From Candidatus Methanophagaceae archaeon GoMg1 (GTDB lineage: Archaea > Halobacteriota > Syntropharchaeia > Alkanophagales > Methanospirareceae): DNA of 64,000 bases. Shown here one piece after another: positions 401 to 41,498 of this stretch. The DNA lies in NCBI GenBank assembly GCA_013180605.1, contig QBUL01000189.1:2483-66482 (forward strand), written 5' to 3'. The notes under the pieces are model-generated. The model saw only the letters and a list, made by a program, of their open reading frames with translations. It ran no database searches and was not told where the DNA came from. The stretch's first letter is position 1; each line of letters begins with the position of its first letter. The position numbers were made by a program, and so were the translations under genes.

Positions 401-693
401 TCCATCGTCTCGGCTATTCCTCACTCTTCACTTCAACAAAACCACATTTCCCGTTCCTCTCCTTCTCCGCTCTGCCAATCCTTTACTTTCAAGTAAATCC
501 AACGACCTGCTGACATTTGCTTTTGGCAGCCCGGTTTTCTCCACTATTTCGCTCTGCTCGATAATTCCATCCGATTCAAGAATCGTTTCGTATATCTATT
601 TCATCAAAGTAAATTATAGACACAGATTAACGCAGATTGCGAAACGAAAAAGTTTTTTTTGTGAGTAGGAGGAAGAGTTATAAAACATAAGAT

Positions 694-1701
694 ATGAAAC
701 TGGCATCCGCTTCGGGAAATTTGGAGGTAATTGGACTGGGCGCCTTGAATTACGATGTTTTATATGCCGTTGAGCGCATAGCGAAAGGAGGCGAGGAGGT
801 AGGGATTACGGATGTGAAAAAGGCGCCTGGGGGTTCTGCAGCAAATACAATCGTTGCTTTAGCACGGTTAGGCGTTGATGCGGGTTTCGTTGGCACGGTA
901 GGTAACGATGAAGAAGGCAAACGGATTCTGGAAGACCTTAGGGAAGAAGGGGTGGAGATAAGGATAAAAAAACGTGAAGGTTACACAGGCTCCGCAGTAG
1001 CGTTCGTTGATGCCCGGGGAGAACGAGCACTTTATATCCTTCCCGGTGTGAATGCCCAACTGTGCACAGACGATATAGACCGTGAATTTGTGAACCACGC
1101 GAAATTTCTACACACGAGTTCGTTTGTAAACCGAGAGCAGTTGGAAACGCAGCGTGAATTGGCGAAGCGCATACACAACAAGACAAAACTCAGTTTTAGT
1201 CCCGGTATGCTCTGTTTCAAATACGAACTTGACGATTTGACCGAGCTAATAGAACGAAGCGAAGTGGTTTTTATCAGTGCTGATGAATTGAAATCGGTGA
1301 TAAAGGATACGAACTACGAAAAAGGTGCAGAATTTCTTTTGGACGTCGGTGCCCGGATTGTCTGTGTGACGCTGGGCAGGAAAGGCTGTTATGTCGCTGA
1401 TAGCAGCACGGGAGAATCGCATTTGATAGATGCTTATCCAACGGATGTGGTGGACACGACAGGTGCAGGGGACGCATTCGCAGCAGGATTCTTGTTTGCG
1501 TTGCTGCGTGATAAGAGCCTATACGAAAGTGGAAAGGCGGGCAATTTAGTTGCTTCGCTCTGTATACGCGAATATGGCGGTAGAAAAGGATTGCCTTACA
1601 AGAAATTTATCCCCGCAACGCTACAAAAAGGAGTGAAAAAAAATAAATCGTTGACACAGATTAACGCTTGTGGGCTCTGCCCACATTCCCGCAAGCCCTG
1701 A
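694..1701 (+). CDS. PfkB/ribokinase-family sugar kinase
   Basis: Gly-rich N-terminal motif 'KKAPGGSAANTIVALARLG' and C-terminal 'DTTGAGDAFAAGFL' are PfkB signatures. The last ~20 codons (…KSLTQINACGLCPHSRKP) are encoded by a repeat element (see finding on repeat-encoded C-termini). Confidence 0.8.
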   Translation: MKLASASGNLEVIGLGALNYDVLYAVERIAKGGEEVGITDVKKAPGGSAANTIVALARLGVDAGFVGTVGNDEEGKRILEDLREEGVEIRIKKREGYTGSAVAFVDARGERALYILPGVNAQLCTDDIDREFVNHAKFLHTSSFVNREQLETQRELAKRIHNKTKLSFSPGMLCFKYELDDLTELIERSEVVFISADELKSVIKDTNYEKGAEFLLDVGARIVCVTLGRKGCYVADSSTGESHLIDAYPTDVVDTTGAGDAFAAGFLFALLRDKSLYESGKAGNLVASLCIREYGGRKGLPYKKFIPATLQKGVKKNKSLTQINACGLCPHSRKP

Positions 1702-1830
1702 AAGGGCTTAATTAACACAGATAAAAGGAGCTATACCGTTAAAAATAGCCCAACCCAGCCCAGCAAAAGAAAAAATCAGTGTGAATCTGTGTCTTAAATA
1801 GAAGGAAGTTATACATTATATGCAATAATA
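1637..1830 (+). repeat. Variant copy of the CAGATTAAC promoter cassette. It contains an internal 'gctctgcccacattcccgcaagccctgaaagggcttaattaa' hairpin module and ends in the conserved extended promoter motif AAATAGAAGGAAGTTATACATTATAT.
   Basis: Near-identical cassettes at 9586-9720 and 13766-13880. The hairpin module reappears inverted at 13062-13110. Confidence 0.8.
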
Positions 1831-8467: not shown

Positions 8468-8532
8468 ACAAACCGTCTTTCTAAAGAAAGAAGCTTTACC
8501 AACAACCTTTCTTTAAAAAAGAAAGCTTGACC
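8466..8532 (+). terminator. Two consecutive palindromic hairpins (CTTTCTAAAGAAAG and CTTTCTTTAAAAAAGAAAG), each followed by TTGACCAA
   Basis: Seen directly; same family as 7203-7236. Confidence 0.5.
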
Positions 8533-8796
8533 AAAGAAACAAGAGTATTTTTGCTTCGCAAAAACCACTTAAAGAGTTTTAGTAATCCATGTCAAAGAAA
8601 CCTGTTTTAGATCCAACCTTTTGCTTCTCTAATTATATAGCGGGGAAGGTATCGGAAAACCCGAAGGGGGTTTCTGATTGTTTTAGTGGATTACCTTCTG
8701 CGTACTCTGCGCTCTCCGCTGTAATAAATCGCAGACTATATTTTTAAATAGTACCCTTTATTACTATATAATGCATACATAGTTAACCAAACAAGA

Positions 8797-9507
8797 ATGA
8801 GGAAAATAGTGAACAAGCCACCAGACTTGAAACTGTTTCTGTTCTATGGATTAGTGCTTATACCAACGTTCTTTTTGTGCTGCTCGCGAAACGACATGGC
8901 TTTCTTCTTTGTTCTCGTGGCGATGCTTCTGACAAGCGTGATAGAGATACCCATCTACGGGCTTAGAACAAAGAAGCCAGGATATAGTGCGCTTGAGGCA
9001 GCGTGTATCGGTGATTTTTATGGCGTGCCAATATCAGAGGAGATGCAGGCAGACAATGGAAGGACATATAAAACACAGGTAACACTGAATGTCGGCGGCT
9101 TCATTATACCACTGCTTTTCTCAGTTTATCTGCTGCTGAACTATTCCACACTCTTGTTAGACATATCGCTGGCTATCTTGCTAATGGCTCTCTTTTCCTA
9201 CATGCTTTTAGAGGTAAAAGCAGGCGTGGGCATCGTAATTCCCAGTTACGTAGGTGTGTTTGCCATTCCTCTTGCATTTATACTCGCACCCGAAGTACAA
9301 GCCGAAGCACAAGCAGTGAATACGGCAATAGCGGGGTTGATATTTATACTGGCAATTTTTGGCATTCTATTGGGGCTGCTAATAGCGGTGGCAACACTGT
9401 CCAGAGAAGAAGTAGGAAGCGCTTTTTTTAATCTCGGTGGCATAGGCAGCTTTCAGCCCATATACCTTATCTCCATTCTGGCTTTGTTAATTGGAACCGT
9501 ACCGTAG
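8797..9507 (+). CDS. Polytopic membrane protein of unknown function
   Basis: 6-7 hydrophobic helices ('NVGGFIIPLLFSVYLLLNY'). No catalytic motif recognised. Confidence 0.45.
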   Translation: MRKIVNKPPDLKLFLFYGLVLIPTFFLCCSRNDMAFFFVLVAMLLTSVIEIPIYGLRTKKPGYSALEAACIGDFYGVPISEEMQADNGRTYKTQVTLNVGGFIIPLLFSVYLLLNYSTLLLDISLAILLMALFSYMLLEVKAGVGIVIPSYVGVFAIPLAFILAPEVQAEAQAVNTAIAGLIFILAIFGILLGLLIAVATLSREEVGSAFFNLGGIGSFQPIYLISILALLIGTVP

Positions 9508-9585
9508 CATAGCACAGCGCCGCATACTATCATGCACAAAATTCGTGGGATTTTTTAACAGACATCGAGAAAATAGACAAGAAAA

Positions 9586-9720
9586 AATAAATTGTTGACA
9601 CAGATTAACGCAGATTAACACAGACAGATGATAAAAATCAACACGGTTAAACTAAAATAAATCTGCGTAAATCAGTGTAAATCTGTGTCTTAAATAGAAA
9701 GAAGTTACACTTTATAACTA
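9586..9720 (+). promoter_or_regulatory. CAGATTAAC cassette, followed by a TAAATAGAAAGAAGTTACACTTTATAA promoter motif
   Basis: The element reads TTGACA-CAGATTAAC-g-CAGATTAAC-a-CAGA…AAATCTGCGTAAATCAGTGTAAATCTGTGTC. About 90% identical to 13766-13880. Confidence 0.8.
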
Positions 9721-9722
9721 CA

Positions 9723-10418
9723 GTGAAACGTAAAGTAATATTAAAATTAGGTGGCAGTCTGATAGAAAAATCACGGGACATCCTGCGGGTTCTTGTAGAT
9801 TATGCCCGTGAGCGTGATGGAGATAAAAATGGAGATTTCACCCTGGTACTGATTCCCGGTGGTGGACCTTTTGCTGAAACGGTAAGAAATATCTCTGCGA
9901 CTATGTCAATACCCGATGAAACAGCACATTGGATGGCTGTTCTCGCAATGCACCAGTATGGGCTTTTTTTGGCTGCTTGTAGCGGAGGTGAAGCCGGGAT
10001 ACCTTTGGTCGAAAGCGAGGATGAGGATGAAATAGACTGTGCTGGACCGATATGCATATTACTGCCCTATAAGATTCTAGAACAGGATGATTGCTTACCT
10101 CATACCTGGGACGTCACGTCGGACACGATAGCTGCGTTTGTCGCAAACAGGCTGGGTGAAAAAAGATTCATAAAATTGACCGATGTAGATGGAATACGTG
10201 ATAAAAAGAGCGGGCATCTTATCGAAAAAATCCGGGCGAACGAGCTGGCGGGGGAACAGGCAGCTGGTCTGAATTGTATTGATGCGGAGCTTCCAGGATT
10301 TTTAATGCAGACCAAAATGAGCTGCATTATTGTAAACGGCAACTACCCAAACAGGATAATAGATGCAATCGAGGAGAAAGAGAACGTGAACAAGACGGTC
10401 TGCACAAAAATCTTTTAG
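9723..10418 (+). CDS. Amino-acid-kinase-family protein (UMP-kinase / MfnE / isopentenyl-phosphate-kinase-like). GTG start. Exact substrate not assignable.
   Basis: 'VILKLGGSLI' phosphate loop, 'LIPGGGPFAE', and 'HTWDVTSDTIAAFVANRLGEKRFIKLTDVDGI' resemble the archaeal UMPK/IPK fold. There is no ProB-type 'VSSGA' motif. Confidence 0.65.
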   Translation: MKRKVILKLGGSLIEKSRDILRVLVDYARERDGDKNGDFTLVLIPGGGPFAETVRNISATMSIPDETAHWMAVLAMHQYGLFLAACSGGEAGIPLVESEDEDEIDCAGPICILLPYKILEQDDCLPHTWDVTSDTIAAFVANRLGEKRFIKLTDVDGIRDKKSGHLIEKIRANELAGEQAAGLNCIDAELPGFLMQTKMSCIIVNGNYPNRIIDAIEEKENVNKTVCTKIF

Positions 10419-11335
10419 AGTGCAGATGTCGCAGAAGCTTTCTTTCTACGAGAACGCGGACGTGGTCGTGGGGAAAGAGAATCCACATCCAAGTCTAACC
10501 CTTTTTCCAGTTCCTTATACCTATTTCGGATTGTAATCTCCGTTGTACCTACTACCTTGGCTATTTCCTTCTCCGTTCGGTACTCGCCACTTAAAACCGC
10601 GGCAATGTATATCGCCGCTGCTGCTGTTCCTATTGGTGCCCAGCCCCTCGCAGTTCCCGTTCCCTCATTCCTCTTTAGTATCTCTATTGCCTTTTCCCTT
10701 ATCGCCTCGCTTAATCCTAATGCGGAGCAGAACCGAGGAATGTAATGCGATGGGTCAGCAGGGGCAATCTTCAATCCGAATTTCCTTAAAAGGAAAATAT
10801 ACGCACGCCTTATTTTCTTCAGGGGGCTTCTTGACACCCGCGCAATTTCCTTCAGCGTTCGTGGAATCCCATTTTGCCTGCAAATAATGTACAGCATTGC
10901 TGAGACCAATTCTTCTATACTGCGTCCCTTAATCAAATTTCGTTTCGCCGCTTTTCGGTACAGCACAGAAGTCATCTCTTTAATATCATTCGGCAGCTTA
11001 AGTGCGCATGCCATTCTATCTATCTCGATAAGTGCGAAGGCAAGGGTCTTCTCGCTACTGTCCATGTTTACCCACTTTAATCTCTGTATCCCGGCGGGTA
11101 ATTTTGGCGTTGGTGTGCTCAGCCCTTTATCATGAATTCTATAACTCATACCCGGACCTGTTCTTACCCTTTTTGATGCTTGCTCGGAATCGTACGCACG
11201 CCATTCTGGTCCGAGGTCCACGAGATTCTCCGCTATCACCATCCCGCAGTTGGCACAGTACAGTTCTGCATGCTTAGAATCAGACACAACGTTTTTTGAT
11301 CCGCATTCTGGACATATTTTTAGTTTGTTTGCCAT
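10415..11335 (-). CDS. tfb: Transcription initiation factor IIB (TFB)
   Basis: N-terminal Zn ribbon 'CPECGSKNVVSDSKHAELYCANCGMV' and two cyclin folds. Start placed at MANKLK (the six-frame ORF reads through upstream). It has an unusual Arg/Pro-rich C-terminal tail 'SPRPRPRSRRKKASATSAL'. Confidence 0.9.
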   Translation of the reverse strand: MANKLKICPECGSKNVVSDSKHAELYCANCGMVIAENLVDLGPEWRAYDSEQASKRVRTGPGMSYRIHDKGLSTPTPKLPAGIQRLKWVNMDSSEKTLAFALIEIDRMACALKLPNDIKEMTSVLYRKAAKRNLIKGRSIEELVSAMLYIICRQNGIPRTLKEIARVSRSPLKKIRRAYIFLLRKFGLKIAPADPSHYIPRFCSALGLSEAIREKAIEILKRNEGTGTARGWAPIGTAAAAIYIAAVLSGEYRTEKEIAKVVGTTEITIRNRYKELEKGLDLDVDSLSPRPRPRSRRKKASATSAL

Positions 11336-11379
11336 ACCAGAGATGTTTATATTTTTTCTGTTATATAATACTTTCGTTT

Positions 11380-11430
11380 TTATTGTATATAAAGTGTAAC
11401 TTCCCTCTGTTTGAGACACGGATTTTTTCT
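11380..11430 (-). promoter_or_regulatory. tfb promoter carrying the same extended motif, TCTCAAACAGAGGGAAGTTACACTTTATATACAAT (on the minus strand)
   Basis: Reverse complement of 11388-11425 matches the cassette's 3' motif. Confidence 0.6.
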
Positions 11431-11526
11431 TTTGTTCTTGAGACCGAAAACTTTTTATATTGCCTCGACATATTTTAAAAGCATGACAAAAGTTAGCGAA
11501 AGGGATATTAAAAAAAAAGGAGGTGA

Positions 11527-11850
11527 TTGAAAATGGTAGAAGAAAAACAGGGGGGATTGAAACAGTTGTTTGTTTACGAACATGATGCAAGTCGGCTGGA
11601 ACTTTTCATCAGAATCGTGTATTCGTTCGTTGTAATGCTGGTGTTAGCTGTGTACGGATTTATCGCAGAGATATGCATGCTTATTCAGTGGTTTGTGGTA
11701 TTGATACTTGGACGCAGAAGCGAGGGGTTAAGCAACTTCATTAAAGGGTATCTGGAATATTTTGTGCACGTGATAGGCTATGTTTACTGGATGACCGACG
11801 ATAGACCCGGAATATTCCCAAAGCCTGTTGAGATATACGAGAAAAAGTGA
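11527..11850 (+). CDS. Small membrane protein, DUF4389-like
   Basis: Two TM helices and a 'WMTDDRPGIFP' tail typical of that family (from memory). Confidence 0.4.
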   Translation: MKMVEEKQGGLKQLFVYEHDASRLELFIRIVYSFVVMLVLAVYGFIAEICMLIQWFVVLILGRRSEGLSNFIKGYLEYFVHVIGYVYWMTDDRPGIFPKPVEIYEKK

Positions 11851-12000
11851 ACGAGGTATTCATCAATAAATCGGTGAATACCCGTAATAACCTTTTTCTT
11901 TTTTTTTCTTTTTATACTTTATTCATGACATAATTTCAATTTGAGGATATCTATAACTTTACATATAGGTGATAGAATACTTACACAATAAAAAAATAAA

Positions 12001-12990
12001 ATGAGAACTGCGTGGCTGAAGATAAGGATGGGGATGTGTGTATTGCTCCTGTTTGCGGTGATATATGCGCTATTAATCGTTATAGCTACCCTCTTAGGAG
12101 GTACAGGGTCTGGTATGATGATAATTTATGCTTTAATCGCATTCGTGCTGGTGGGTATTCAGTTCTTTATAGGTCCGAAGATAGTGGAGCGGTCAATGCG
12201 TGTTCGCTATGTTTCGGAACAAGAGCAGCCGGAATTGCACCGGATGGTGACCGAATTAGCGATGAAGGCAGGGATACCCAAACCAAGGGTAGGGATTTCT
12301 GAGATTTCTATACCCAACGCTTTTGCGTTCGGCACCTCGAAAAAGAAAGCGAGGGTTTGCGTCACGCGAAGATTAATGGAGATGTTAAGCAGGGACGAAT
12401 TAGAAGCGGTTTTAGGGCATGAACTTTCGCACATAAAACATCAAGATATGGTAGTTATAACGGCGCTGAGCGTGATACCGATGATATGCTACTTCATCTA
12501 TTTCAGCTTCTTCTGGTCGGGTATCTTCGGCGGCGGCATGGGCAGAAGTAGAGATGGAGCGTTACCAATGATGGCTATTGCTTTAATCGCCTTCGTGGTG
12601 TATTTCATAAGTAACCTTATCGTGCTTTACGTGTCTCGTATAAGGGAGTATTATGCGGATGCAGGAAGTGCAGAGCTAACGAGAAAGCCTCATGAACTCG
12701 CTTCTGCGCTATACAAAATGATTTATGGTAGTGCAGGAGCGAAGCCGGAAAAGGTAAAAAAGGAAATGGAAAGTATGCGAGCTTTCTTCGCTGCCGACCC
12801 TGTAACTGCAAGGAGGGATTTAAAGGATTTGCGCGCTGCCGATTTAAATAAAGATGGAAAGATAGATGAATATGAACTAAGAGCTTTTGCAGAAAGGGCA
12901 AGAGTAAGCCGTGCTGATAGGTTGATGGAAATCTTTTCCACGCATCCTACCCCGGTTAGCAGGGTTAAAAAGCTGGGAGAGTATCTTTAA
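12001..12990 (+). CDS. htpX: M48-family zinc metalloprotease HtpX homolog with an inserted EF-hand-like loop
   Basis: 'HELSHIKHQD' (HExxH), downstream Glu and a C-terminal 'FSTHPTPVSRVKKL' motif. Canonical EF-hand loop 'DLNKDGKIDEYE' at aa ~281-292. Confidence 0.8.
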   Translation: MRTAWLKIRMGMCVLLLFAVIYALLIVIATLLGGTGSGMMIIYALIAFVLVGIQFFIGPKIVERSMRVRYVSEQEQPELHRMVTELAMKAGIPKPRVGISEISIPNAFAFGTSKKKARVCVTRRLMEMLSRDELEAVLGHELSHIKHQDMVVITALSVIPMICYFIYFSFFWSGIFGGGMGRSRDGALPMMAIALIAFVVYFISNLIVLYVSRIREYYADAGSAELTRKPHELASALYKMIYGSAGAKPEKVKKEMESMRAFFAADPVTARRDLKDLRAADLNKDGKIDEYELRAFAERARVSRADRLMEIFSTHPTPVSRVKKLGEYL

Positions 12991-13145
12991 GATAGCGGTT
13001 TGGCGGTTTAGACGGTTAGCGGATTGCTCAAAAGCCCTGAAACCTAAAACCGGACACCTGTTTGGTCTGTGTTAATTAAGCCCTTTCGGGGCTTGCGGGA
13101 ATGTGGGCAGAGCTCCCTTAGCGTTCATCCGTGTCAACAATTTAT
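12991..13145 (+). repeat. Composite of three repeat families: internal fragment of the MITE-like element, inverted hairpin module (13062-13110), inverted start of the CAGATTAAC cassette (13110-13145)
   Basis: 'gcggtttggcggtttagacgg' matches 18945-18975. 13062-13110 is the reverse complement of 1676-1725. 13113-13142 is the reverse complement of 'aaataaattgttgacac(a/g)gat'. Confidence 0.7.
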
Positions 13146-13684
13146 TTTCTATTTTCTCGTAGCTTCACACAACCATTTGCCACCTTTATCACCACCTCTA
13201 TATCCCTCTCGCTCCACCTTGAAGAATCTATCACCATGTCGTAAATGGAAAGGTCGTCCAAATCTATTCCATAATATTGCTCGTATCGCTTATTTTCTGA
13301 GCGTTCTCGGTTGTTCATAGCAGAAAGAGCTTCTTCGTAGGCTATTGCTTCCCGATGCGCAATTCGCTTCGCTCTTACTTCTACCGGTGCTTTTAGCCAT
13401 ATCTTTAGGTCTGCGTCAGGAACAGAGAATCCGGACAACCTGCCTTCTACAATGACATTCTCCCGCTTCATCGCCTCTTCTCCCTGCCGCTCATCTATTT
13501 GTCTATCGAAATCGTCATCGGTTTCTGCCAATTTGTTAAAATGCTCTAACTGCAGTTTCTTTTCCTTCGCTATTTGCCTAAATAGCTCGCCCGCGGAAAT
13601 TAGCTCTACTGATAATTCTTCTGATAGCAACTTCGCAACCGTTGTTGTGCCACTGCCCGGAAGACCACTTATTGTTATTCGCAT
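13142..13684 (-). CDS. cmk: Archaeal-type cytidylate (CMP) kinase
   Basis: 'MRITISGLPGSGTTTVAKLL' P-loop. About 180 aa, collinear with the archaeal cmk family. Confidence 0.75.
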   Translation of the reverse strand: MRITISGLPGSGTTTVAKLLSEELSVELISAGELFRQIAKEKKLQLEHFNKLAETDDDFDRQIDERQGEEAMKRENVIVEGRLSGFSVPDADLKIWLKAPVEVRAKRIAHREAIAYEEALSAMNNRERSENKRYEQYYGIDLDDLSIYDMVIDSSRWSERDIEVVIKVANGCVKLRENRK

Positions 13685-13765
13685 AAACTTTTTCTTATTT
13701 ACTTTACGATATACTAATTATGTATTTACCCAAATATTTTTGTGTTAGCAGAACGAACGGAAATA

Positions 13766-13880
13766 AATTGTTGACACAGATTAACGCAGATTAACACAGA
13801 TGATAAGAATCAACACGGTTAAACTAAAATAAATCTGCGTAAATCTGTGTCTCAAATAGAAGGAAGCTATACTTTATATA
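13766..13880 (+). promoter_or_regulatory. CAGATTAAC cassette, followed by a TCAAATAGAAGGAAGCTATACTTTATATA promoter motif
   Basis: Near-identical to 9586-9720. Confidence 0.8.
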
Positions 13881-13882
13881 CA

Positions 13883-15142
13883 ATGAAAAAGGGGCACATA
13901 TCAAAAATGACGAATAACACGATATATATCATTGACGTCACAAACAGAGACGGTGTGCAGACATCGAAATTGGGCTTAGCGAAGTTAGAGAAGACCATGC
14001 TGAACCTTTACCTGGATGAGATGGGTGTCTTCATGAGCGAGTTCGGTTTCCCAGTCACGAGGCACGAGACGAACTATTTGAATGCCAATCTGGCGTTAGC
14101 AGAGATAGGTGCTCTGAAACGCATACGACTTAGCGGGTGGTTGAGAGCAATAAAGGGGGATGTCGAAGAAGCTTTTCGATTGGTGCCGAAACTGAAGCAC
14201 GTTAATTTGAGTATATCAACATCTAAACAGATGATAGAGGGCAAATTCAGGGGAAAATTCGGCTGGAAGGACATAATAAGAGAGATGTGCGAGGCAGTTG
14301 ATGCAGCGAGGGAACACGGTGCAGAGACTATTGGAGTCAACGCAGAAGACGCTTCGAGGACAGAACTCGAACGGCTGATAGAATTTGCCGAAGCTGCAAA
14401 ACAGCATGGTGCAGACCGGATAAGATACTGCGACACGCTCGGCTATGACGACTCGTTCACCATTTACGAGCGAGTAAAAGCACTCGCAGAGGCGGTGTGT
14501 ATTCCCATCGAACTGCACTGTCACAACGATTTGGGTATGGCAGTCGCCTGCTCGATTGCGGGCGCCAAAGGAGCAATGGATGCGGGTGTTGATGCGTACA
14601 TTAACACCACGATTAATGGACTGGGCGAGCGAGCTGGTAACGCAGACCTGGTTTCGACAATACTCGCGGTAAAGAAAGCAAGTGGTTTTGAACACAAATA
14701 TCGGTTACAGGAGGTAGATTTAAGCCACGCATGGCGGATCTGCAACTACGCTTCTCTTTCTTTTAGCGTCCCTATCCCGGTCAACCAGCCTGCGGTAGGC
14801 GATAACGCCTTCGCCCATGAATCCGGGATACACGTTGATGGGACGTTAAAAGACAGTAGAAATTATGAACTGTATGACTACACAGAAGTAGGCAGAGGGC
14901 ATATCGAGCAGATTGAGACGGGTAGGCTTATAACAACGGGAGAATATTCGGGAATAAAGGGGTTCAAGAACGTGGCAGGTAAATACGAGTTGGAATTCCG
15001 AGATGACAAAGAAGCTCGTGAAATACTAGAACTCGTGAGGTATGCGAACGTCCACACACAGAAGCCTGTGACGGAGGACGAAATGAAGTTCATTGCAAAA
15101 TACCCGCAGCAGGCAAGAAAGATTATGTCGGTGCAACCATAA
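13883..15142 (+). CDS. LeuA/NifV-family acyl-CoA:2-oxoacid condensing enzyme; candidate Re-citrate synthase given the aconitase + IDH genes immediately downstream
   Basis: 'DVTNRDGVQT' and 'HCHNDLGMAVA' HMGL-like motifs. Start ambiguous: 13847, 13883 or 13907, depending on which TATA-like octamer is used. Confidence 0.7.
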   Translation: MKKGHISKMTNNTIYIIDVTNRDGVQTSKLGLAKLEKTMLNLYLDEMGVFMSEFGFPVTRHETNYLNANLALAEIGALKRIRLSGWLRAIKGDVEEAFRLVPKLKHVNLSISTSKQMIEGKFRGKFGWKDIIREMCEAVDAAREHGAETIGVNAEDASRTELERLIEFAEAAKQHGADRIRYCDTLGYDDSFTIYERVKALAEAVCIPIELHCHNDLGMAVACSIAGAKGAMDAGVDAYINTTINGLGERAGNADLVSTILAVKKASGFEHKYRLQEVDLSHAWRICNYASLSFSVPIPVNQPAVGDNAFAHESGIHVDGTLKDSRNYELYDYTEVGRGHIEQIETGRLITTGEYSGIKGFKNVAGKYELEFRDDKEAREILELVRYANVHTQKPVTEDEMKFIAKYPQQARKIMSVQP

Positions 15143-15321
15143 ACATAAATCTCAATGTCAAATACTACCAAATCCCAAGTAAATCCCAATTTCCAAATCC
15201 CAAAGAGAAAGGATAAATTGTGGTATATCTTTTTACAAAAGAAGGAGAAGAAAATAGAAAGGCAACAACCTTTTTATTTAAGCCCACCACTTTAATTATT
15301 GTGTAGAAAAAACAAGATAAA

Positions 15322-15534
15322 ATGAGGACTTATATCTTTAAGGTGGCAATTGAACCGGATGATGATAAGTGGGTTGCTTACTCCCTGGAACTCAAAGACA
15401 GAGGAGGAGCAACCTGGGGTGAGACCAAAGAAGAAGCATTAAATAATTTACAAGATGTAATTCGGTTAGTCATTGAAGATATGGAGGAATGCGGAGAGTT
15501 ACCCTCTTTTGAATCGGAGATTTTCTTTTCATAA
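15322..15534 (+). CDS. HicB-like (UPF0150) antitoxin-fold protein, orphan
   Basis: 'VAYSLELKDRGGATWGETKEEALNNLQDVIRLVIEDMEE' matches the HicB N-domain pattern. No HicA partner detected. Confidence 0.45.
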   Translation: MRTYIFKVAIEPDDDKWVAYSLELKDRGGATWGETKEEALNNLQDVIRLVIEDMEECGELPSFESEIFFS

Positions 15535-15690
15535 AGGAAGCCAGACTTTCAGTCCTAAAATCCTCAAAATTATGATTGAGGACCAGGCAAGATGGAGTGA
15601 AGATGATTTAAAGTGCTTAAAAATACTGAAATAAAAATAAATATCGAAAAAGTAACATATACGATTGATTTAAATTATGGAGTGATTAAT

Positions 15691-17628
15691 ATGTCTGGAA
15701 CAGTTGCAGAAAAGATAATTAACGAGCATATTGTAGATGTAGAGGGAGAAATAGTGCCTGGAGAAGAGGTTGCTTTGAAGATTGACCAGACGCTTACCCA
15801 GGATGCAACGGGTACAATGGCTTATCTGCAGTTCGAAGCTATTGGTATACCAAGGGTGAGAACAGAACTGAGCGTTAGTTATGTTGACCACAACACGCTG
15901 CAAACAGACTTCAAAAACCCTGATGACCATAGATACCTTCAATCCATAGCTAAGAGATTCGGTTTGTATTTCTCCCGCCCCGGTAATGGTATCTGTCACC
16001 AGCTCCACCTGGAAAGATTCGCCTGTCCGGGCAAGACGCTGATTGGTTCTGACAGCCACACACCTACGGCGGGTGGTATAGGTTCGTTTGCCATAGGCGC
16101 GGGTGGTCTTGACGTGGCGGTCGCCATGGCAGGTATGCCGTACAGAATAAAGTATCCAAAGATTACGGGTATAAAACTTACAGGAAAACTTCCTGATTGG
16201 GTCTCAGCTAAGGACGTCATACTGGAGGTTCTTCGCAGGATAGACGTCAAAGGCGGAAGGGGGAAGGTGCTGGAGTATTTTGGTCCCGGAGTTAAGACGC
16301 TTAGCGTACCAGAGCGAGCAACAATAACCAATATGGGCACTGAAACAGGAGCGACGACGAGCGTATTCCCGAGCGATGAAGTGACACGGAGCTTCATGGA
16401 AGCACAGGCACGTGGCGACCAATGGGTTTCGCTTGAAGCCGATGCAGATGCAGGATATGACGAAATCATAGAGATTGACCTGAGCGAAGTAGAGCCACTG
16501 GTTGCTATTCCTCACAGTCCGGGGAACGTCAAGCCGGTGAGAGAGATTGCAGGAATGGATGTGCAGCAAGTAGCGATTGGCTCGTGTACAAACTCCTCGT
16601 TACGCGACCTCAAAAAGGTGGCAAATATACTGAAAGGGCATACGATTGCGGATAACCTGCATCTTACTATAAACCCGGGTTCGAGGCAGGTGGTAGAGCA
16701 CCTCATCGAGAGCGGTGAGATGCGGTATCTCGTAGCTGCGGGTGCACGGATACTTGAAAACGCCTGCGGTCCTTGCATAGGTATGGGCGCCGCACCATCT
16801 TCGCAGGGCATATCTATACGAACGTTTAACAGGAACTTTGAGGGCAGGAGCGGAACAAAGGACGCAGAGATATTTCTTGTAAGCCCTGAAGTCGCAGCAG
16901 CTACGGCAATTAACGGTGTTCTTACAGACCCACGGGACCTCGGCGATTGCCCTCAGATAGAGATGCCTCGGCGGTTTATAATCAACGACAACATGTTTTT
17001 ACCGCCACTTCAATCAGAGCAGCATCTAGCCAATTTAGTAGAGATTATGAGGGGACCGAACATTAAGCTACTGCCGGATTTCCCGCCATTGCCTGATACG
17101 CTTAAGGGCGAAGTGCTCATTAAGGTTGGGGATAATATCACTACCGACCACATCATGCCTGCTGGAGCGAAAATCCTCCCGTTGAGGAGCAACATACAGG
17201 AGATATCGAAGTATGTTTTTGAGGCGGTTGACCCCGGTTTCCCCTCAAGGGCTCTGGACCGGGGTGGTGGATTCATAATAGGTGGTGAGAACTACGGTCA
17301 GGGCTCAAGCAGAGAACATGCCGCACTTGCACCCAAATATCTGGGCGTTAAGGCGGTAATTGTCAAGTCTTTCGCTCGCATCCATCTCGCGAACTTGATA
17401 AACTTCGGAATAGTGCCTCTGACATTTAAAGATCCAGCGGGCTACGATTCCATAGACCTGGGGGATAAGTTAGAGGTTATTATAGGAGAATTGCGGGACG
17501 ATGTCGGACTCAGGAATCTGACAAAAGGGGATGAAATCGAACTTACACACTCCCTTTCACAACTTGATGCTGAGATATTGAAGACCGGAGGTAAACTGCC
17601 CTGGGTAAAGGCAAAGGTTGGAAAATAA
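15691..17628 (+). CDS. acn: Aconitase-family hydratase (aconitate hydratase, ~650-aa single-chain type)
   Basis: 'GICHQLHLERFACPGKTLIGSDSHTPTAGG' and Fe-S ligand Cys in 'IGSCTNSS' and 'NACGPCIGMG'. Swivel domain 'GGENYGQGSSREHAALAPKYLGVKAVI'. Start set at MSGTVAEKIINEH; the ORF track begins at 15613. Confidence 0.85.
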   Translation: MSGTVAEKIINEHIVDVEGEIVPGEEVALKIDQTLTQDATGTMAYLQFEAIGIPRVRTELSVSYVDHNTLQTDFKNPDDHRYLQSIAKRFGLYFSRPGNGICHQLHLERFACPGKTLIGSDSHTPTAGGIGSFAIGAGGLDVAVAMAGMPYRIKYPKITGIKLTGKLPDWVSAKDVILEVLRRIDVKGGRGKVLEYFGPGVKTLSVPERATITNMGTETGATTSVFPSDEVTRSFMEAQARGDQWVSLEADADAGYDEIIEIDLSEVEPLVAIPHSPGNVKPVREIAGMDVQQVAIGSCTNSSLRDLKKVANILKGHTIADNLHLTINPGSRQVVEHLIESGEMRYLVAAGARILENACGPCIGMGAAPSSQGISIRTFNRNFEGRSGTKDAEIFLVSPEVAAATAINGVLTDPRDLGDCPQIEMPRRFIINDNMFLPPLQSEQHLANLVEIMRGPNIKLLPDFPPLPDTLKGEVLIKVGDNITTDHIMPAGAKILPLRSNIQEISKYVFEAVDPGFPSRALDRGGGFIIGGENYGQGSSREHAALAPKYLGVKAVIVKSFARIHLANLINFGIVPLTFKDPAGYDSIDLGDKLEVIIGELRDDVGLRNLTKGDEIELTHSLSQLDAEILKTGGKLPWVKAKVGK

Positions 17629-18900: not shown

Positions 18901-19040
18901 CTTGACAATGCCAGATTAACCGCAGAGTTCACAGAGAGTGCAGGAGATGGCGGTTTGGAGGTTTAGCGGGTTAGAACGGACTAACACAGGATACCTAACA
19001 CCTAATTCCCTCTGCAGACTCTGCGTTCTCTGCGGTGAAT
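18901..19040 (+). repeat. MITE-like element with terminal inverted repeats (TTAACCGCAGAG…CTCTGCGGTGAA); flanked by degenerate CAGATTA motifs at 18871-18900 and an inverted CAGATTAAC doublet at 19092-19122
   Basis: About 85% identical to the reverse complement of 53627-53754. Related copies at 21451-21586, 30033-30136, 31055-31219 and 60634-60774. Confidence 0.75.
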
Positions 19041-19575
19041 TTTGAAATGCGACACTGTCAAATTAACTCTAACATTATTGATTCTGACTGTCAATCTGTG
19101 TTAATCTGCGTTAATCTGTGTCATCAATTTATTTTTTCAGATACGTTGCCGCGATCCCAAATCAGTGTGCCTGTCTCATGGACACGCTATTCAAGCGAGC
19201 AAGGAGATTCTTCACGGTTGATGCACTGTGACGGCTTCCATTGTAGACAAAATAAAGTCGTAAGCTAAGTTAAGTTTCTTTATCTCCATGGGAAGAGGAT
19301 GGTCCTGGCGCCATTTTTTTTTTGGTAGAGTGTGTCGTCCTGTTCGGCGCTCAGATCAGCGACACATCCACTGGCATGGCCAATAATGAGCTTAATGGCA
19401 CCAATATTGCATAAGAAGGGCATTTAAGCTTACAGTTGATGATATGTAGGTGGCACATCTAATTCTGTTCAGGTGTTTATAATAAAGGAATAAATTATTG
19501 TGGGTCCAACGACATTGCCTAAATCAAAATATTCGCTAGTTTTATAAGGAATAAAAGCGATATTAACAAGTAAAT

Positions 19576-21450: not shown

Positions 21451-21586
21451 TTACCGCCGAGATCACGGAGAGCGCTGAGATGACGTGAAGGTATGAGTTG
21501 TAAGTAAGCCAAACTCCTCAAACCTGAACCCTCAAACCTCACACCTACGCTGACTCTCTGTGTTCTCTGCGGGCTTTGCGGTGAGT
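21451..21586 (+). repeat. MITE-like element, subfamily with internal 'aaggtatgagttgt' and 'aacct-aaacct' tracts
   Basis: TIRs 'accgccgagatcacggagagcgctgag' and 'ctctctgtgttctctgcggg…gcggtgag'; close relative of 60634-60774. Confidence 0.7.
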
Positions 21587-21602
21587 AACAAGTACAAAAA
21601 TT

Positions 21603-24238: not shown

Positions 24239-24667
24239 ATGGAAAGATTTAAAAGGGTCTTCTTCTCGTGCTCGATGCGTGGTGGGTTTGGACGAGTCGC
24301 ACAGGAAGAGCTGAGGAAAATACCGGATATAATAGAAGAGCTGGGGATGGTGGTGATAAGCAGACATCAAACGAGCGAACGATTTATGGAAAGTGAGTCA
24401 CGATTGACAGATAAGGCGATTCACGATCGTGATTACGGATGGCTTAATGATGCAGACACGGTAATAGCAGAGATAACGAACCCGAGCCTCGGTGTCGGTG
24501 CGGAAATAGCAGATGCGGTTAACCTGGGTATTCCTGTGTTATGTGTATATAGAACAGATTATGAACGCCAGATTTCGGCATATATACGCGGTAAAGCGGG
24601 TGTTGTGTGTAGGGCATATTCAGATCATGACGAGCTGAAAGATGTGATCAGGGAGTTTGTGCTTTGA
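24239..24667 (+). CDS. 2'-deoxynucleoside 5'-phosphate N-hydrolase, DNPH1/Rcl ortholog (nucleoside 2-deoxyribosyltransferase-like fold)
   Basis: Aligns along its length with mammalian Rcl from memory: 'VFFSCSMRGG' vs 'VYFCGSIRGG', and 'IHDRDYGWLNDADTVIAEITNPSLGVGAEIADAVNLGIPVLCVY' vs 'IHEQDLNWLQQADVVVAEVTQPSLGVGYELGRAVALGKPILCLF'. Confidence 0.8.
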   Translation: MERFKRVFFSCSMRGGFGRVAQEELRKIPDIIEELGMVVISRHQTSERFMESESRLTDKAIHDRDYGWLNDADTVIAEITNPSLGVGAEIADAVNLGIPVLCVYRTDYERQISAYIRGKAGVVCRAYSDHDELKDVIREFVL

Positions 24668-24775
24668 TTCTTGTTGTATATAAGGTATAACTTCTACTTA
24701 TCCAAGACGCAGATTTACACTGATTTAATTTCTTCTGCGTTAATCAGCGTTAATCTGTGTCAATAATTAATTTTA
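24661..24775 (-). promoter_or_regulatory. Inverted copy of the CAGATTAAC cassette. Its promoter motif (reverse complement of 24661-24700: ATCTGCGTCTTGGATAAGTAGAAGTTATACCTTATATACAAC) points leftward into the 3' end of the DNPH1-like gene and toward the U32 gene.
   Basis: Reverse complement of 24700-24775 is 'ttgacacagattaacgctgattaacgcag…aatcagtgtaaatctgcgtc', the cassette consensus. Confidence 0.6.
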
Positions 24776-24945
24776 GTTGGATATTATGCTTTCTTGTTAT
24801 TGGAGATGGACGGTATTTTTCAGAAAATATCTCATACATAATCATCGCTAACCTTTTTCTCGCTTCAGCTAAATCGAAGTCATATTCCTTTTCTTTTTCT
24901 TTATCTACAACTAATACCTATTCCTTTTTACTTTTAGATTCCTTT

Positions 24946-25743
24946 TCAGCTATCTCCAAAAGGCAAATCTTTAACTAATTGACTTATTTCTTCACGTTCG
25001 GGCTTGGTCTTTTTTTCATAAATGTCACTCAGTTTTGCCATCTCATCCATTGAAAGGTATTTAATTCCATTGTCGGTTATTAAACACATGTCCGTTGATT
25101 TTCCTACTCCCTGGGATACTTCTGCATTCCTCTTTGCTTCATAAACTAAATATACTGCGTGATTTATAGAATTTTTAGGCGTATAATTGTTTAACATAAA
25201 TGTTGAAAGGGCATGAAGTTCACCAGACCCAATAGCATTGTATCCTAATGAATCATAACAGTCTGAAACACCTGGATCACGAACACCATGGATATGCGCA
25301 CCTTCATTATCTAATCCTACAATCAGAATCTCTAATTCATATTCTGTCTCTTCTATTTTTTTATGTATACCGACAACGATCTCAGCAGGTAATGAATCTG
25401 CATACTCCTTATAAAACGACTCCAAAGTCATTCCCTTTGGTTTGAGATACAGCTCTTCTACCCTGTTTTTTCTTTGTTCCACAAAACTATCCTTAATGCT
25501 CTTGGTGATTCGTGAAACCAATGGCTTGGAGATAGTAGCAAGGTCAGATTTCACCTCTCTAAAGAGTTCTGTATGGGCTAAAGCAGAACCTGCCGTGAGG
25601 GCTACGCAAGTGTCTGAAAGTTCCTCTATTTTTGGTGTATCATGTTCAAATTCGATTGGGGGATACCAGGCAGTCACCATCTTGTCAGATGCCACTACCG
25701 CAGCTTTATATTCATCACATATCGCTCCGATACATATTGTCAT
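24946..25743 (-). CDS. Proteasome-beta/HslV/Anbu-like N-terminal-nucleophile hydrolase (Thr directly after the initiator Met, no propeptide)
   Basis: 'MTICIGAICDEYKAAVVASDKMVT…DTCVALTAGSA…YNAIGSGELHA' follows the T1-peptidase fold pattern 'TTxVGI…vvLAaD.R.t…A.tiAGs…GSG'. Length 265 aa with a C-terminal extension. Confidence 0.6.
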   Translation of the reverse strand: MTICIGAICDEYKAAVVASDKMVTAWYPPIEFEHDTPKIEELSDTCVALTAGSALAHTELFREVKSDLATISKPLVSRITKSIKDSFVEQRKNRVEELYLKPKGMTLESFYKEYADSLPAEIVVGIHKKIEETEYELEILIVGLDNEGAHIHGVRDPGVSDCYDSLGYNAIGSGELHALSTFMLNNYTPKNSINHAVYLVYEAKRNAEVSQGVGKSTDMCLITDNGIKYLSMDEMAKLSDIYEKKTKPEREEISQLVKDLPFGDS

Positions 25744-27111: not shown

Positions 27112-28107
27112 TTACATTTGTGGCACAATATGCACGCCAACAATCATCGGATACGCACCGTATTCCAGCCTACCAATGCCGTAATCCGTATAAGTAAGAC
27201 CAACAGCGAGATAAGTATCGTTTTTCTTTAAATACAGGAGCATTCTCAGCCCGTAAGTCCAGCGATGCTTTTTCTTTAGCTCGTTCCATGTTTTGTAGAA
27301 GTCATCACACCTGCACGACCATCTTCGGTAGGTTCTGCCTGAGGAATCCTTGAAGTTAAAACGGATGTACAGTTCATAGCCTTTGCCTTTTCCCGTTTTC
27401 TTTCCCGCAGGCTCTTCATAGACATGCAAAATGCGTGGTTTTATCAATCCTAAGCTCCTGCCTCTTTTGAATACTTCATCTACTGAACCATCAACGTTTC
27501 GCTCTAAGAAATCTCTTTTCTCTTCTTCGCTTAGCTCCCTTTCCACGCTATCGGCATAAACAAAAAACCTGTCCTCTTTTCGTGGTCGCCTGCCTCTCCA
27601 CGCATCAACGTATATTTTTGAGATGCAGAGGTTTTTGAAATTTGCTCCTCCAGCTCCAGCACAAAAAACATCGTGTTCATAAACGCCTTGTGGCCTTATC
27701 CATTTACCGTTCTCGTCTATACCTGCGATGCAGACCCGTCCATGCTCAGGTCTTGCAACTGCCAGTACGGTAAGACGCTGCGCGGGTGCGCGATTTAACG
27801 GGGCAATATTCGCAGTAATCTCTGTTATTCGTGTGTATTTCCCTGCATTCACTCTTTTCTCGCTTCCTGCTCGCGCCGCATCAGGAACACGTGCGTTTTC
27901 TATCTTCAGCACGTCGCCTGCTTTTATATCGCCGTGAATAACGAGTTCTGCCTTTTCATCCCAGCACGATACCCTCTTGTAATCGAATTCATCGGCTATT
28001 ATGAGGTCAACGACCTTTTTGGTTTCGTCACCAACATCCACTTCTCTAAGTGGCATAATTCGAAGTACTTTTCCGGTTATGGTTATAGTTCTGGTTATGT
28101 TCGCCAT
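27112..28107 (-). CDS. Protein with an N-terminal RPA-like OB fold fused to a ~220-aa uncharacterised, Cys-containing C-terminal domain
   Basis: 'ITITGKVLRIMPLREVDVGDETKKVVDLIIADEFDYKRVSCWDEKAE' matches the archaeal RPA OB-fold pattern. The C-terminal part ('RVCIAGIDENGKW…WSCRCDDFYKTW') is unrecognised. Confidence 0.5.
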   Translation of the reverse strand: MANITRTITITGKVLRIMPLREVDVGDETKKVVDLIIADEFDYKRVSCWDEKAELVIHGDIKAGDVLKIENARVPDAARAGSEKRVNAGKYTRITEITANIAPLNRAPAQRLTVLAVARPEHGRVCIAGIDENGKWIRPQGVYEHDVFCAGAGGANFKNLCISKIYVDAWRGRRPRKEDRFFVYADSVERELSEEEKRDFLERNVDGSVDEVFKRGRSLGLIKPRILHVYEEPAGKKTGKGKGYELYIRFNFKDSSGRTYRRWSCRCDDFYKTWNELKKKHRWTYGLRMLLYLKKNDTYLAVGLTYTDYGIGRLEYGAYPMIVGVHIVPQM

Positions 28108-28402
28108 TGCCGAAGCACCTGTAAATGTTCCTTTTTTCTTTAGTAAAAGTTTCTTTTTTTGTATCTAATCAGGTTTTTAAAGTTTTTCTTTTTTGATAAA
28201 ATAGCGGTTTGCGAAATTATCTCGTTGTATATAATGTATAGCTTCTTTCTATTTAGAGGATTTTGATTTACTCCTTGTAATAGTCTCTTCTCTATATACT
28301 TTTGTGGTATTTTCACTCGTTTTTGGGTTCCTTTTTTTCAGCCCAGAATGAAAAATAGTGTGTGATAATCGTTAAAAAATCTAAAACAATCGTTTTATAA
28401 TT

Positions 28403-30000: not shown

Positions 30001-30032
30001 GTCAGATTATCGTCAGGTGGGGCACAGTCTAA

Positions 30033-30136
30033 AAATATAGTGATTTATCACCGCGGAGAGCGCCGAGTCCGCAGAGTTTTAAGACTGTTTCAATCGTTGC
30101 TCGTTTTTTCTGGTGCCTCTGCGTTCTCCGTGTGCT
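30033..30136 (+). repeat. MITE-like element (subfamily with internal 'cttaagactgtttcaatcgttgctc'), with shared 5' flank 'aaaat(a)tagtgatttatcaccgc'
   Basis: TIR 'tcaccgcggagagcgccgag…ctctgcgttctccgtgtgctctgcggtga'; paralog of 31055-31219. Confidence 0.75.
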
Positions 30137-30214
30137 CTGCGGTGATTTTTGAGGATATAGCAATTTCACTGAAAAATTTGACAGTGCCGTCAGGTGGTAA
30201 AAACGGATAAATAA

Positions 30215-30985: not shown

Positions 30986-31054
30986 AAAACCATATTGCTC
31001 GAAGTTCCTTCCGATCAAAAGAAAAGGCATTTTTTATCCACGAGGCGACACTAT

Positions 31055-31219
31055 CTAAAAATCAAGTGATTTATCACCGCCGAGATCGCAGAGACCACAG
31101 AGTCTTAAGACTGTTTCAATCGTTGCTCAGATTTTCTGACACAGATTTACACTGATTTACGCGGACTTATATCTGTGTCTATAATTTATGTCTCTGCGTT
31201 CTCCGTGTGCTCTGCAGTG
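31055..31219 (+). repeat. MITE-like element with a nested CAGATTA-type element ('tgacacagatttacactgatttacgcggacttatatctgtgtc') inserted in its middle
   Basis: Same ends as 30033-30136, with a ~55-bp insert at 31137-31190. Confidence 0.7.
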
Positions 31220-31280
31220 AAATTTAAGGATATATATAGCAATTTCGCAGATTAAGAATAGGGCGATTGCTCGCCCATTC

Positions 31281-41437: not shown

Positions 41438-41498
41438 ATAACCACCTGATTACACAGATTTTCACAAGATTCCTTTTTTTCCTCCAAACTATACATTT

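Follow-up and report, generated by a model that had tools for sequence, protein, structure and literature searches.

In a 64-kb stretch of contig QBUL01000189.1 of Candidatus Methanophagaceae archaeon GoMg1, three genes are each preceded by a full copy of the same short, non-coding, promoter-bearing cassette, here termed family A. The whole stretch is referred to as the window; coordinates are positions in it, and L-numbers denote database loci compared with it. Genes were called by simple open reading frame (ORF) logic backed by Pfam and NCBIfam. The first cassette precedes proA (ATG at 1888), the second a kinase gene (9723 to 10418, GTG start), and the third a synthase gene (conserved ATG at 13907) followed by genes for aconitase and NADP-isocitrate dehydrogenase (IDH). 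An initial annotation, made from the window alone, had placed the cassettes at 1637 to 1830, 9586 to 9720, and 13766 to 13880, where the sequence reads as claimed. Its gene names held for aconitase, IDH, and ProA, which scored 552 bits with NF001221, a model whose cut-off is 289. The kinase, whose substrate it had left uncertain, finds its nearest match in MfnE, from methanofuran biosynthesis (153 bits, short of the model cut-off of 300), which points to cofactor synthesis rather than amino-acid synthesis. The synthase, which had been assigned to the LeuA family, is LeuA/homocitrate-synthase-like, with scores below every equivalog cut-off.

An alignment of eleven type-1 copies, taken from non-orthologous sites in 10 metagenome-assembled genomes (MAGs), yielded a consensus for the unit. 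At full length (approximately 130 to 150 nt), it runs from a left flank through a left arm, a spacer, and an inverted right arm to a core promoter. The left flank, a conserved A-rich CAAGAAAATAAATTAT, extends beyond the left boundary drawn initially. The left arm is built from two or three 10-nt units (A/G)C(A/G)GATTAAC (aligned form, GAC-ACAGATTAAC-GCAGATTAAC-ACAGAT), and the right arm from inverted GTAAATC(T/A)G(T/C) units terminating in GTGTC (aligned form, ATCTGCGTAAATCAGTGTAAATCTGTGTC); the number of arm units differs between copies in 10-nt steps. Subfamilies are defined by the spacer, and most of them carry an outward-facing promoter module, TTAAATAG-AAGGAAGTTATAC-TTTATATA-CAA. Mean column identity across the eleven copies was 84%, spacer included, and the spacer was conserved as strongly as the arms. 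Pairwise identities were 84 to 97%, with no clustering by genome, and similarity ended abruptly on both sides of the unit. [quoted passage not shown]

The arms, spacer, and promoter motif described by the initial annotation were thus recovered, but its leading TTGACA and a true inverted complementarity of the arms were not. The base before GACAC is variable (A, T, or G), and TTGACA lies outside the family consensus; as this base is unconserved and the host is archaeal, a bacterial −35 box was rejected. The arms (19 to 33 nt) are imperfectly complementary inverted repeats. Left units read GATTAAC and right units GATTTAC on the other strand, so that a hairpin would hold a conserved A-A mismatch in each unit. 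Because conserved flanks reach beyond them, the arms are sub-terminal; a string resembling ACAAGAAA is seen at either end of many copies, yet it is part of the conserved unit.

The copy upstream of the kinase gene is a full type-1 cassette on the plus strand (9578 to 9722), with the left flank at 9578 to 9596, a left arm of three 10-nt units at 9597 to 9629, the spacer at 9630 to 9660, the right arm at 9661 to 9689, and the promoter module at 9690 to 9722. Within this module, TTAAATAG occupies 9690 to 9697 and a degenerate AT-rich box 9711 to 9718, and nhmmer placed the promoter match at 9685 to 9716. The full type-1 copy upstream of the LeuA-like gene (13759 to 13883, plus strand) has its left arm at 13773 to 13801, its spacer at 13802 to 13832, and a right arm of two units at 13833 to 13851, followed by the TTAAATAG-type box TCAAATAG (13852 to 13859), TTTATATA (13873 to 13880), and CAA (13881 to 13883). 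The copy upstream of proA (1640 to 1825, plus strand) has a type-2 spacer, and its left arm is divided into a unit at 1653 to 1667 and a remainder at 1711 to 1722; the right arm (1775 to 1793) and promoter module (1794 to 1825) follow. An internal hairpin module had been noted in this copy; it is present, but as a separate insert of approximately 43 nt (1668 to 1710) that recurs at the same junction elsewhere. This double-hairpin module, TTGTGGGCTCTGCCCACATTCCCGCAAGCCCTGAAAGGGCTTA, occurs a second time in the window (13066 to 13113, minus strand) and also in L037, L047, L065, L066, L069, L072, L081, L095, and L109. Its position is always an AAC(G/A)C^AGAT unit junction in the left arm, shifted in L049 to the corresponding junction one unit on, and it looks like a tiny site-specific insert. 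A pfkB-family ORF (694 to 1701) extends approximately 50 nt into the proA cassette; as its stop codon falls within the hairpin module, the 3′ end of this gene was apparently remodelled by the insertion.

Copies are not confined to these three sites. With at most one mismatch, CAGATTAAC matched 31 times in the window, against 17.5 expected, a count reached in 0 of 100 shuffles, and two arm units in 10-nt phase gave 15 matches against 0.23 in shuffles. A repeat finder tied the three full cassettes to one another and to further window sites. Overall, at least 11 copies or fragments lie within the window, at least 8 of which (whole, partial, or nested) are additional to the three full ones.

Forty-eight promoter modules were found in approximately 0.5 Mb. 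An ORF with an ATG start and at least 70 codons (at least 35 if it runs off the contig end) begins within 130 nt of 31 of these 48 modules, and one more module is followed by tRNA-Phe. Among the 17 modules without a qualifying ORF, approximately six lie too near a contig end to judge and at least four are directed at an opposing gene's 3′ end. Gaps between the end of TTTATATA and the ATG were short (2, 2, 2, 8, 9, 9, 10, 10, 10, 11, 13, and so on to 24 nt for most copies), with a median of approximately 16 nt, and the ATG lay at least 23 nt past TTAAATAG in all copies but one. Unambiguous N-termini (e.g., MKRYKIAVIPGDGIG and MGKVYLVGAGPGD) and Shine-Dalgarno sites were found 8 to 15 nt past TTTATATA, and several Shine-Dalgarno sites began 10 to 12 nt beyond it.

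The archaeal TATA box is usually centred approximately 26 bp upstream of the transcription start. As start codons and Shine-Dalgarno sites follow TTTATATA by only 8 to 21 nt in most copies, and TTTATATA is too near the ATG in approximately 60% of cases, this box was rejected as the TATA box under standard archaeal spacing. TTAAATAG, 21 nt further upstream, predicts transcription to start at the conserved CA(A). No start codon was found upstream of this predicted start, and three lay exactly on CA(A). The start-codon positions therefore suggest that TTAAATAG is the TATA box and TTTATATA an AT-rich stretch just before the transcription start, and both the promoter activity of the module and its start position are inferred from them. 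The archaeal transcription factor B recognition element is a purine-rich element directly upstream of the TATA box; upstream of TTAAATAG lies the arm end ATCTGTGTC, which is not purine-rich. In the kinase gene, the GTG start follows the degenerate AT-rich box at a distance of only approximately 5 nt, consistent with a leaderless transcript. In L109 (1 to 420, minus strand), a tRNA-Phe gene lies between two cassettes, one ending 22 nt 5′ of the tRNA and the next beginning 6 nt 3′ of it.

Genes following the 48 promoter-bearing copies are functionally mixed. Their products include a nitroreductase, TldD, a NucS-like protein, class I LysRS, a tRNA-guanine transglycosylase C2/PUA-domain protein, an ornithine cyclodeaminase-like protein (OCD), PS decarboxylase, a NACHT protein, an IDH/IPMDH-family enzyme, RpoE, a CBS protein, V-ATPase F, an ABC ATPase, SecF, DapF, Lrp/AsnC, an aminotransferase, the cobA product, and tRNA-Phe. 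Other copies stand in non-promoter contexts, between convergent genes, at 24674 to 24796 and 13061 to 13157 in the window and also in L033 and L043.

These data bear on one of two readings offered by the initial annotation, a palindromic operator whose inverted doublets would bind a dimeric regulator co-controlling genes for glutamate, proline, and 2-oxoglutarate supply. It accommodates the position of the three full window copies before proA, the kinase gene, and the synthase-aconitase-IDH operon, and the amino-acid-linked genes found downstream of copies elsewhere (those for OCD, DapF, the aminotransferase, Lrp/AsnC, and the IDH/IPMDH-family enzyme). However, a motif scan with tabulation of downstream genes, which had been proposed as a check, revealed no shared metabolic theme. 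The claimed lean toward glutamate and proline supply came to at most a mild, post hoc excess of amino-acid genes, as most targets are unrelated (tRNA-Phe, RpoE, LysRS, SecF, V-ATPase F, TldD, the nitroreductase, and the NACHT protein) and the kinase is MfnE-like. The copies did show a strong bias to positions directly before start codons. A pathway-specific operator is unsupported because the targets are mixed and the cassette is unconserved at the same promoters in close relatives. Likewise, copies sit between convergent genes and nested in other repeats, the same arms are present in bacteria, and the spacer is as conserved as the arms, unlike in a binding site, which would not require a conserved spacer. 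Such an operator is very improbable and is largely refuted by the present data.

One genome per species was scanned with the 15-mer seed GACACAGATTAACGC, by which the compared loci were chosen. The seed occurred at at least 116 genome loci; 75 of those listed came from approximately 26 archaeal MAGs, mostly labelled Methanophagales or ANME-1 (anaerobic methanotrophic archaea), with one labelled Syntrophoarchaeum and one Methanoperedens, labels that are only as reliable as the binning. The unit as such was recovered in at least 25 related MAGs. A second in-phase unit followed the seed in 69 of 83 archaeal matches, compared with 0 of 27 chance matches in viral contigs. The viral matches, which served as a negative control, all lacked the phased repeat structure (27/27) and resembled protein-coding sequence, and viral carriage of the ANME cassette was rejected on these grounds. 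Apart from the cassettes, no strongly conserved DNA is shared between the Syntrophoarchaeum-labelled MAG and the other loci.

In a qualitative census, the subfamilies (type-1 spacer, type-2 spacer, compact, and promoter-less with different flanks) each occurred in many genomes, with several copies per genome. Compact copies with the same sharp boundaries were found in L003, L013, L014, L042, L043, L087, and L113, again several per genome. Away from the seeds, arm clusters occurred at approximately 0.3 to 0.5 per 10 kb in MAG loci, and the window has 0.9 per 10 kb; by these densities a genome would contain in the region of a hundred copies or more; as loci were seed-selected and the genome scan covers at least 116 loci, copy numbers are rough. 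One public MAG contig (L014, 4500 to 4549) ends in the Illumina adapter AGATCGGAAGAGCACACGTCTGAACTCCAGTCAC right after a cassette, which is an assembly artefact.

Close relatives differ in what they carry at the same sites. L078 (Methanophagales CSMAG_2436) is syntenic with window positions 8697 to 16814 at 90 to 97% nucleotide identity, which places the window in an ANME-1 genome. Upstream of the LeuA-like gene, whose start ATGACGAA is conserved in the window, L078, and L146, the window has the full cassette, L146 a copy without the left arm, and L078 no cassette, only a 57-nt spacer. This cassette-free promoter shows the same layout as the promoter module, with a TATA-like box and then an AT-rich run ending at the ATG. 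Upstream of the kinase gene, the type-1 cassette of the window corresponds to a cassette with an unrelated spacer in L078 and to none in L148, L149, and L155, where the gap between the DUF1614 and kinase genes is just 30 to 50 nt. A promoter half upstream of tfb is present in the window and L147 and absent from L078, L148, and L155, and a piece at 13061 to 13157 is present in L078 and absent from L146 and L155. The site upstream of cobA is occupied by different repeat families in the window and in L048 (93% identical). Presence/absence polymorphism of the kind known for MITEs is thus evident between the window and L078, L146, L147, L148, and L155.

Several copies are deletion derivatives that keep the ends (the tfb piece, L050, and L146). 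Chimeras with a second palindromic repeat, family B, lie at 18993 to 19138 and in an L078 insertion between kinase and tfb, and one family-A copy is nested in a family-B repeat (31049 to 31240) whose empty counterpart lies at 30023 to 30160. Among other differences at these loci, the window has approximately 500 nt extra compared with L078 between the synthase and aconitase genes (15143 to 15640), encoding a 70-amino-acid ORF with weak HicB-like and DUF7387 matches, and a DUF4389 ORF (window 11450 to 11850; also in L147, L148, and L155) has been lost from L078.

The presence/absence polymorphism, sharp subfamily boundaries, deletion derivatives, nested and chimeric copies, and start-codon bias support the second reading of the initial annotation, that of a mobile promoter-bearing element. 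Family A probably belongs with the interspersed palindromic repeats of MITE/REP-like type; it is short and non-coding, bears an archaeal core promoter, and is abundant in ANME-1 (Methanophagales) and related genomes. The unit would be copied whole into intergenic DNA and there be lost, truncated, or exchanged. Where its right end faces a gene, the element would supply or replace the promoter of that gene, and transcription from CA(A), approximately 22 to 24 nt after TTAAATAG, would yield leaderless or very-short-leader mRNAs. As conserved ends, the arms are the presumed recognition sites of a protein that copies or binds the element; as the right arm adjoins the TATA box, a protein binding there could also affect transcription. 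We infer both mobility and the copying mechanism from sequence comparison.

Candidates for a mobilizing partner were sought in several ways. Arm pairs 350 to 5000 nt apart in the genome, metagenome, and first-viral-scan loci and in the window enclosed only ordinary genes between separate cassettes, and an autonomous parent element was rejected on this limited sample. No transposase domains were found within the 64-kb window. A tblastn search with IS200 TnpA and Escherichia coli RAYT queries gave one match, a truncated and unrelated IS200-like Y1 transposase ORF (Pfam Y1_Tnp, E = 1.5e-7) in L027 (7123 to 7368), from an ANME-1-type MAG, with no adjacent arm.

Several observations weigh against a MITE/REP-like repeat that supplies promoters. 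No transposase-like ORF is enclosed by arm pairs in the 116 genome loci and the window, and all-against-all clustering of 2161 ORFs from the same loci revealed no protein family enriched near the elements. Four filled/empty comparisons, including the tfb, kinase/tfb 3′, and nested sites, gave no consistent target-site duplication. In L064, a variant has lost 22 nt between TTAAATA and the start codon, and its gene cannot use the proposed TATA box. Approximately 8 of 31 downstream genes touch amino-acid metabolism, which may be a mild excess, although it was noted post hoc. Finally, the whole unit is highly conserved across species without species-specific drift, which is unusual for a selfish MITE; purifying selection on a cellular function would account for it no less well. 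This conservation leaves room for a host-selected function of the arms, e.g., as a phased protein-binding array by the TATA box or as a terminator when reversed.

The unit could instead be a host regulatory or architectural module, its arms being phased sites for an abundant DNA-binding protein (e.g., a global regulator or chromatin protein); the unit would be kept by selection and would spread from promoter to promoter by recombination or gene conversion instead of transposition. This is unlikely on balance, yet several features would fit it well. The unit is more conserved than the surrounding coding DNA (in a comparison of the window with L061, identity was 84% for the IDH gene and 86 to 93% for the cassettes), the right arm adjoins the putative TATA box in all promoter-bearing copies, and the strict 10-nt phasing puts the sites on one helix face. 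Likewise, different subfamily members occupy the same site in close relatives, as gene conversion would yield, and the searches for a transposase or target-site duplication were negative. However, promoter-less copies, fragments, and 3′-3′ spacer copies are common, subfamily boundaries are sharp, and protein binding to the arms leaves the conservation of the spacer unexplained. A host module also overlaps with a MITE/REP-like repeat rather than excluding it.

In a further alternative, the cassette would function as RNA: transcription from an upstream promoter would read through it, and its long hairpin would act as a processing site, stability element, intercistronic insulator, or terminator, as in bacterial REP/BIME or Correia elements. 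The strong predicted hairpin (z = −7.1 for RNA and −3.4 for DNA) and the many copies between co-directional genes are consistent with this, as are similar palindromes filling the spacers between co-directional genes in the viral-collection contig L170. The reversed left flank gives T-runs downstream of genes (e.g., ATTTATTTTTT after IDH), and the L064 variant implies transcription across the cassette. However, every unit holds the conserved A-A mismatch, the unit order is not mirrored, and compensatory changes are lacking. Nor does an RNA element explain why there is a promoter module, or why this module keeps a fixed distance from start codons, and solo promoter halves exist. An Rfam gathering scan of the window and 18 bacterial loci, together with a permissive scan of the cassette, returned only group II intron pieces, tRNAs, and weak generic hairpins. 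As there was no Rfam family, no covariation in the type-1 alignment, and a mismatch in each unit, a known structured RNA family was rejected; inspection of the spacer by eye likewise revealed no proper boxes of a C/D-box small RNA or a riboswitch. Overall, a role as an RNA element seems improbable.

The remaining window copies of family A illustrate its variability. Two inverted copies reported by the initial annotation (19092 to 19122 and 24700 to 24775) are real and were mapped to 19063 to 19138 and 24674 to 24796, both on the minus strand. The latter is a compact-subfamily copy of approximately 123 nt with a 7-nt spacer and an intact promoter module; it sits between convergent genes (24239 to 24667, plus strand, and 24946 to 25743, minus strand), with no ORF after the promoter module. 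The former retains only the left flank, left arm, and spacer, lies downstream of IDH pointing at its 3′ end, and is fused to family-B arms (CGCAGAG units with a 9-nt period, 18993 to 19052). Between the convergent M48 peptidase and CMP kinase genes, the piece at 13061 to 13157 (minus strand) combines the left flank with one left-arm unit in degenerate form and with the double-hairpin module, and is preceded by GCGGTTTAG repeat runs at 12990 to 13020. The promoter half that had been noted at tfb is also real (11383 to 11425, minus strand); it is a solo piece of one right-arm unit and the promoter module, placed upstream of a second TATA-like sequence, GTATTATATAAC, the latter conserved in relatives. 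Further remnants include a fragment of the left flank and the first 1.5 left-arm units upstream of the pfkB-family gene (607 to 646, plus strand), a decayed right arm with promoter module (28225 to 28273, minus strand) upstream of the gene at 27112 to 28107 (minus strand), and a partial promoter module, AGGAAGTTATACATTATGCACA, upstream of cobD (53770 to 53798, plus strand; ATG at 53835), which is a weak profile match (E = 0.01). The nested copy (31133 to 31187, minus strand) is compact, lacks the promoter module, and lies in the spacer of the family-B repeat, of which 30023 to 30160 is the uninterrupted form.

These copies are part of a mosaic of intergenic repeats. Family B has 9-nt arm units (CGCAGAGnn/CTCTGCGnn) and its own conserved flanks and spacer, and occurs at 30023 to 30160, 31049 to 31240, 18993 to 19052, 53621 to 53750, 8697 to 8730, 21452 to 21598, and 60635 to 60667; it is fused to the CAGATTAAC family in chimeras, and a member of that family is nested within it. 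Beside the repeat at 31049 to 31240 lie Rfam group II intron domains on the minus strand (31252 to 31324 and 31951 to 32044; RF00029, 55 bits, and RF02012, 37.9 bits), and the flank next to the intron 3′ end holds a CGCAGATTAAG unit. Runs of the 9-nt GCGGTTT(A/G)G (12990 to 13020 and 18940 to 18975; also L038 and L089) occur downstream of genes and sometimes inside cassette spacers. Another inverted-repeat family, with 10-nt units CAC(A/G)AGATTn (e.g., CCACAAGATTACACAGATTTCCACGAGA), was found at 41425 to 41480, 59135 to 59190, and 63280 to 63309, and the palindrome CAACCTTTCTTTTGAAAAGAAAGGTTGACCAA at 8503 to 8534 and 54783 to 54814, with related sequences inside cassette spacers in L028, L057, and L090.

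Arms with the same phasing were also detected outside ANME-1. In bacterial MAG loci, in-phase units continued after the seed in 23 of 43 matches, with an inverted partner within 170 nt in nine. The labels include Anaerolineae, Planctomycetota, Beta- and Deltaproteobacteria, Rhodospirillales, Microcoleus, and others; the GC content of the loci is 0.40 to 0.64, and several of these MAGs contribute more than one locus. The loci (L002, L007, L010, L016, L023, L036, L041, L086, L093, L104, L106, L115, and others) share 10-nt-phased (A/G)C(A/G)GAT arms and the identical 15-mer. Because some have 60% GC and the element architecture differs, misbinned ANME contigs cannot explain them. When viral contigs were screened for CAGAT units, three of them in 10-nt phase, palindromes of this kind turned up at nine places; viral-collection loci with such repeats are L163, L170, L180, L183, L252, and L261. 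In L170, whose ORFs mostly lack a Pfam match, palindromes or arms lie in five spacers between co-directional genes. The bacterial version of the element had no blastn match in plasmids, and neither an Rfam family nor a paper was found for the bacterial and viral-collection repeats; we know of no name for this class.

A tentative and rather speculative extension is that 10-nt-phased (A/G)C(A/G)GATnnnn arms mark an unnamed, REPIN-like, self-propagating class across Bacteria and Archaea, copied or maintained by a probably single-copy host or viral protein, and that in ANME-1 and its relatives one lineage of such repeats captured a complete core promoter, which now serves approximately one gene in ten. 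If so, this repeat lineage would be a main route of regulatory evolution in these uncultured methane oxidizers. If one common protein recognizes the phased arms, a widespread repeat system would so far have gone unnoticed.

ANME-1 archaea govern much of the methane flux out of marine sediments, and they are uncultured and without genetic tools. The consensus portable promoter, which lies before many of their genes, is a testable candidate for a strong native ANME-1 promoter. Annotation of transcription units in MAGs could profit from it, and it could be used as a component in heterologous expression. Promoters that appear to be gained, swapped, and lost as cassettes between close relatives also bear on the evolution of archaeal regulatory networks. 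A shared upstream motif in these genomes is no evidence of a regulon.

No description of the cassette was found in the literature on ANME-1, repeats, or MITEs, or by searching with sequence strings, but several known systems resemble it. Archaeal operators overlapping the B recognition element or TATA box include the Thermococcales glycolytic motif TATCAC-N5-GTGATA and the NrpR operator GGAA-N6-TTCC. Like the cassette, they are inverted repeats beside the core promoter of several genes. However, regulon operators are short, mark sets of genes with a coherent function, and recur at orthologous promoters, whereas the cassette is approximately 130 nt long, conserved whole, placed before mixed targets, and unconserved at orthologous sites.

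Correia elements of Neisseria are approximately 100 to 155 bp long, with inverted ends, hundreds of intergenic copies, and length and subtype variants; their outward-reading promoters drive neighbouring genes, and their presence differs between strains. The cassette is alike in all these respects: size, inverted ends, intergenic copies, variants, outward promoter, and presence/absence differences. Correia elements are bacterial and confined to one genus, with sigma-70 promoter halves at their ends, 26-bp terminal repeats without internal 10-nt phasing, a TA target duplication, and an IHF site. In contrast, just one end of the ANME-1 cassette bears a promoter, which is of the archaeal TATA type, and the filled/empty comparisons gave no consistent target duplication.

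The REP/BIME/REPIN repeats of Proteobacteria, which are mobilized by RAYT transposases, are likewise short, imperfect intergenic palindromes in mosaics with other short modules, with a master sequence common to related species and no internal transposase; they also lack a target duplication, and no consistent one was found for the cassette. The cassette shares with REPINs an inverted doublet of a short repeat that forms an intergenic hairpin. REPINs have a conserved GTAG-type end motif recognized by RAYT, whereas the cassette ends (GACAC...GTGTC) lack GTAG and no RAYT-like gene was found near the elements. In addition, the cassette has arms of 10-nt tandem units, a complete promoter attached, and an archaeal host.

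Prokaryotic MITEs, including archaeal ones (PMC10969869, PMC11602168), are also small, non-coding, multi-copy, and intergenic, with inverted ends, subfamilies, and deletion derivatives. For the cassette, neither terminal repeats matching a transposase-bearing element nor a consistent target-site duplication was found. In a term search of the MITE census (PMC11602168), the one match to "Methano" was Methanosarcina spelaei, and no retrieved passage dealt with ANME. A further parallel is offered by the putative mobile promoters of Matus-Garcia, Nijveen, and van Passel (2012, PMC3488235; PMC3575422), reported as near-identical upstream regions before non-homologous genes, within and between genomes. 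That work is reportedly a sequence-similarity census across prokaryotes, read as promoter propagation; the cassette adds to it a structural carrier (phased inverted arms, flank, and spacer subfamilies) and an uncultured archaeal host. Links to a transposase or target duplication were not found for the cassette, and it is distinct from Correia elements, REP/BIME/REPIN repeats, and mobile promoters in host domain, arm architecture, and its TATA-type promoter.

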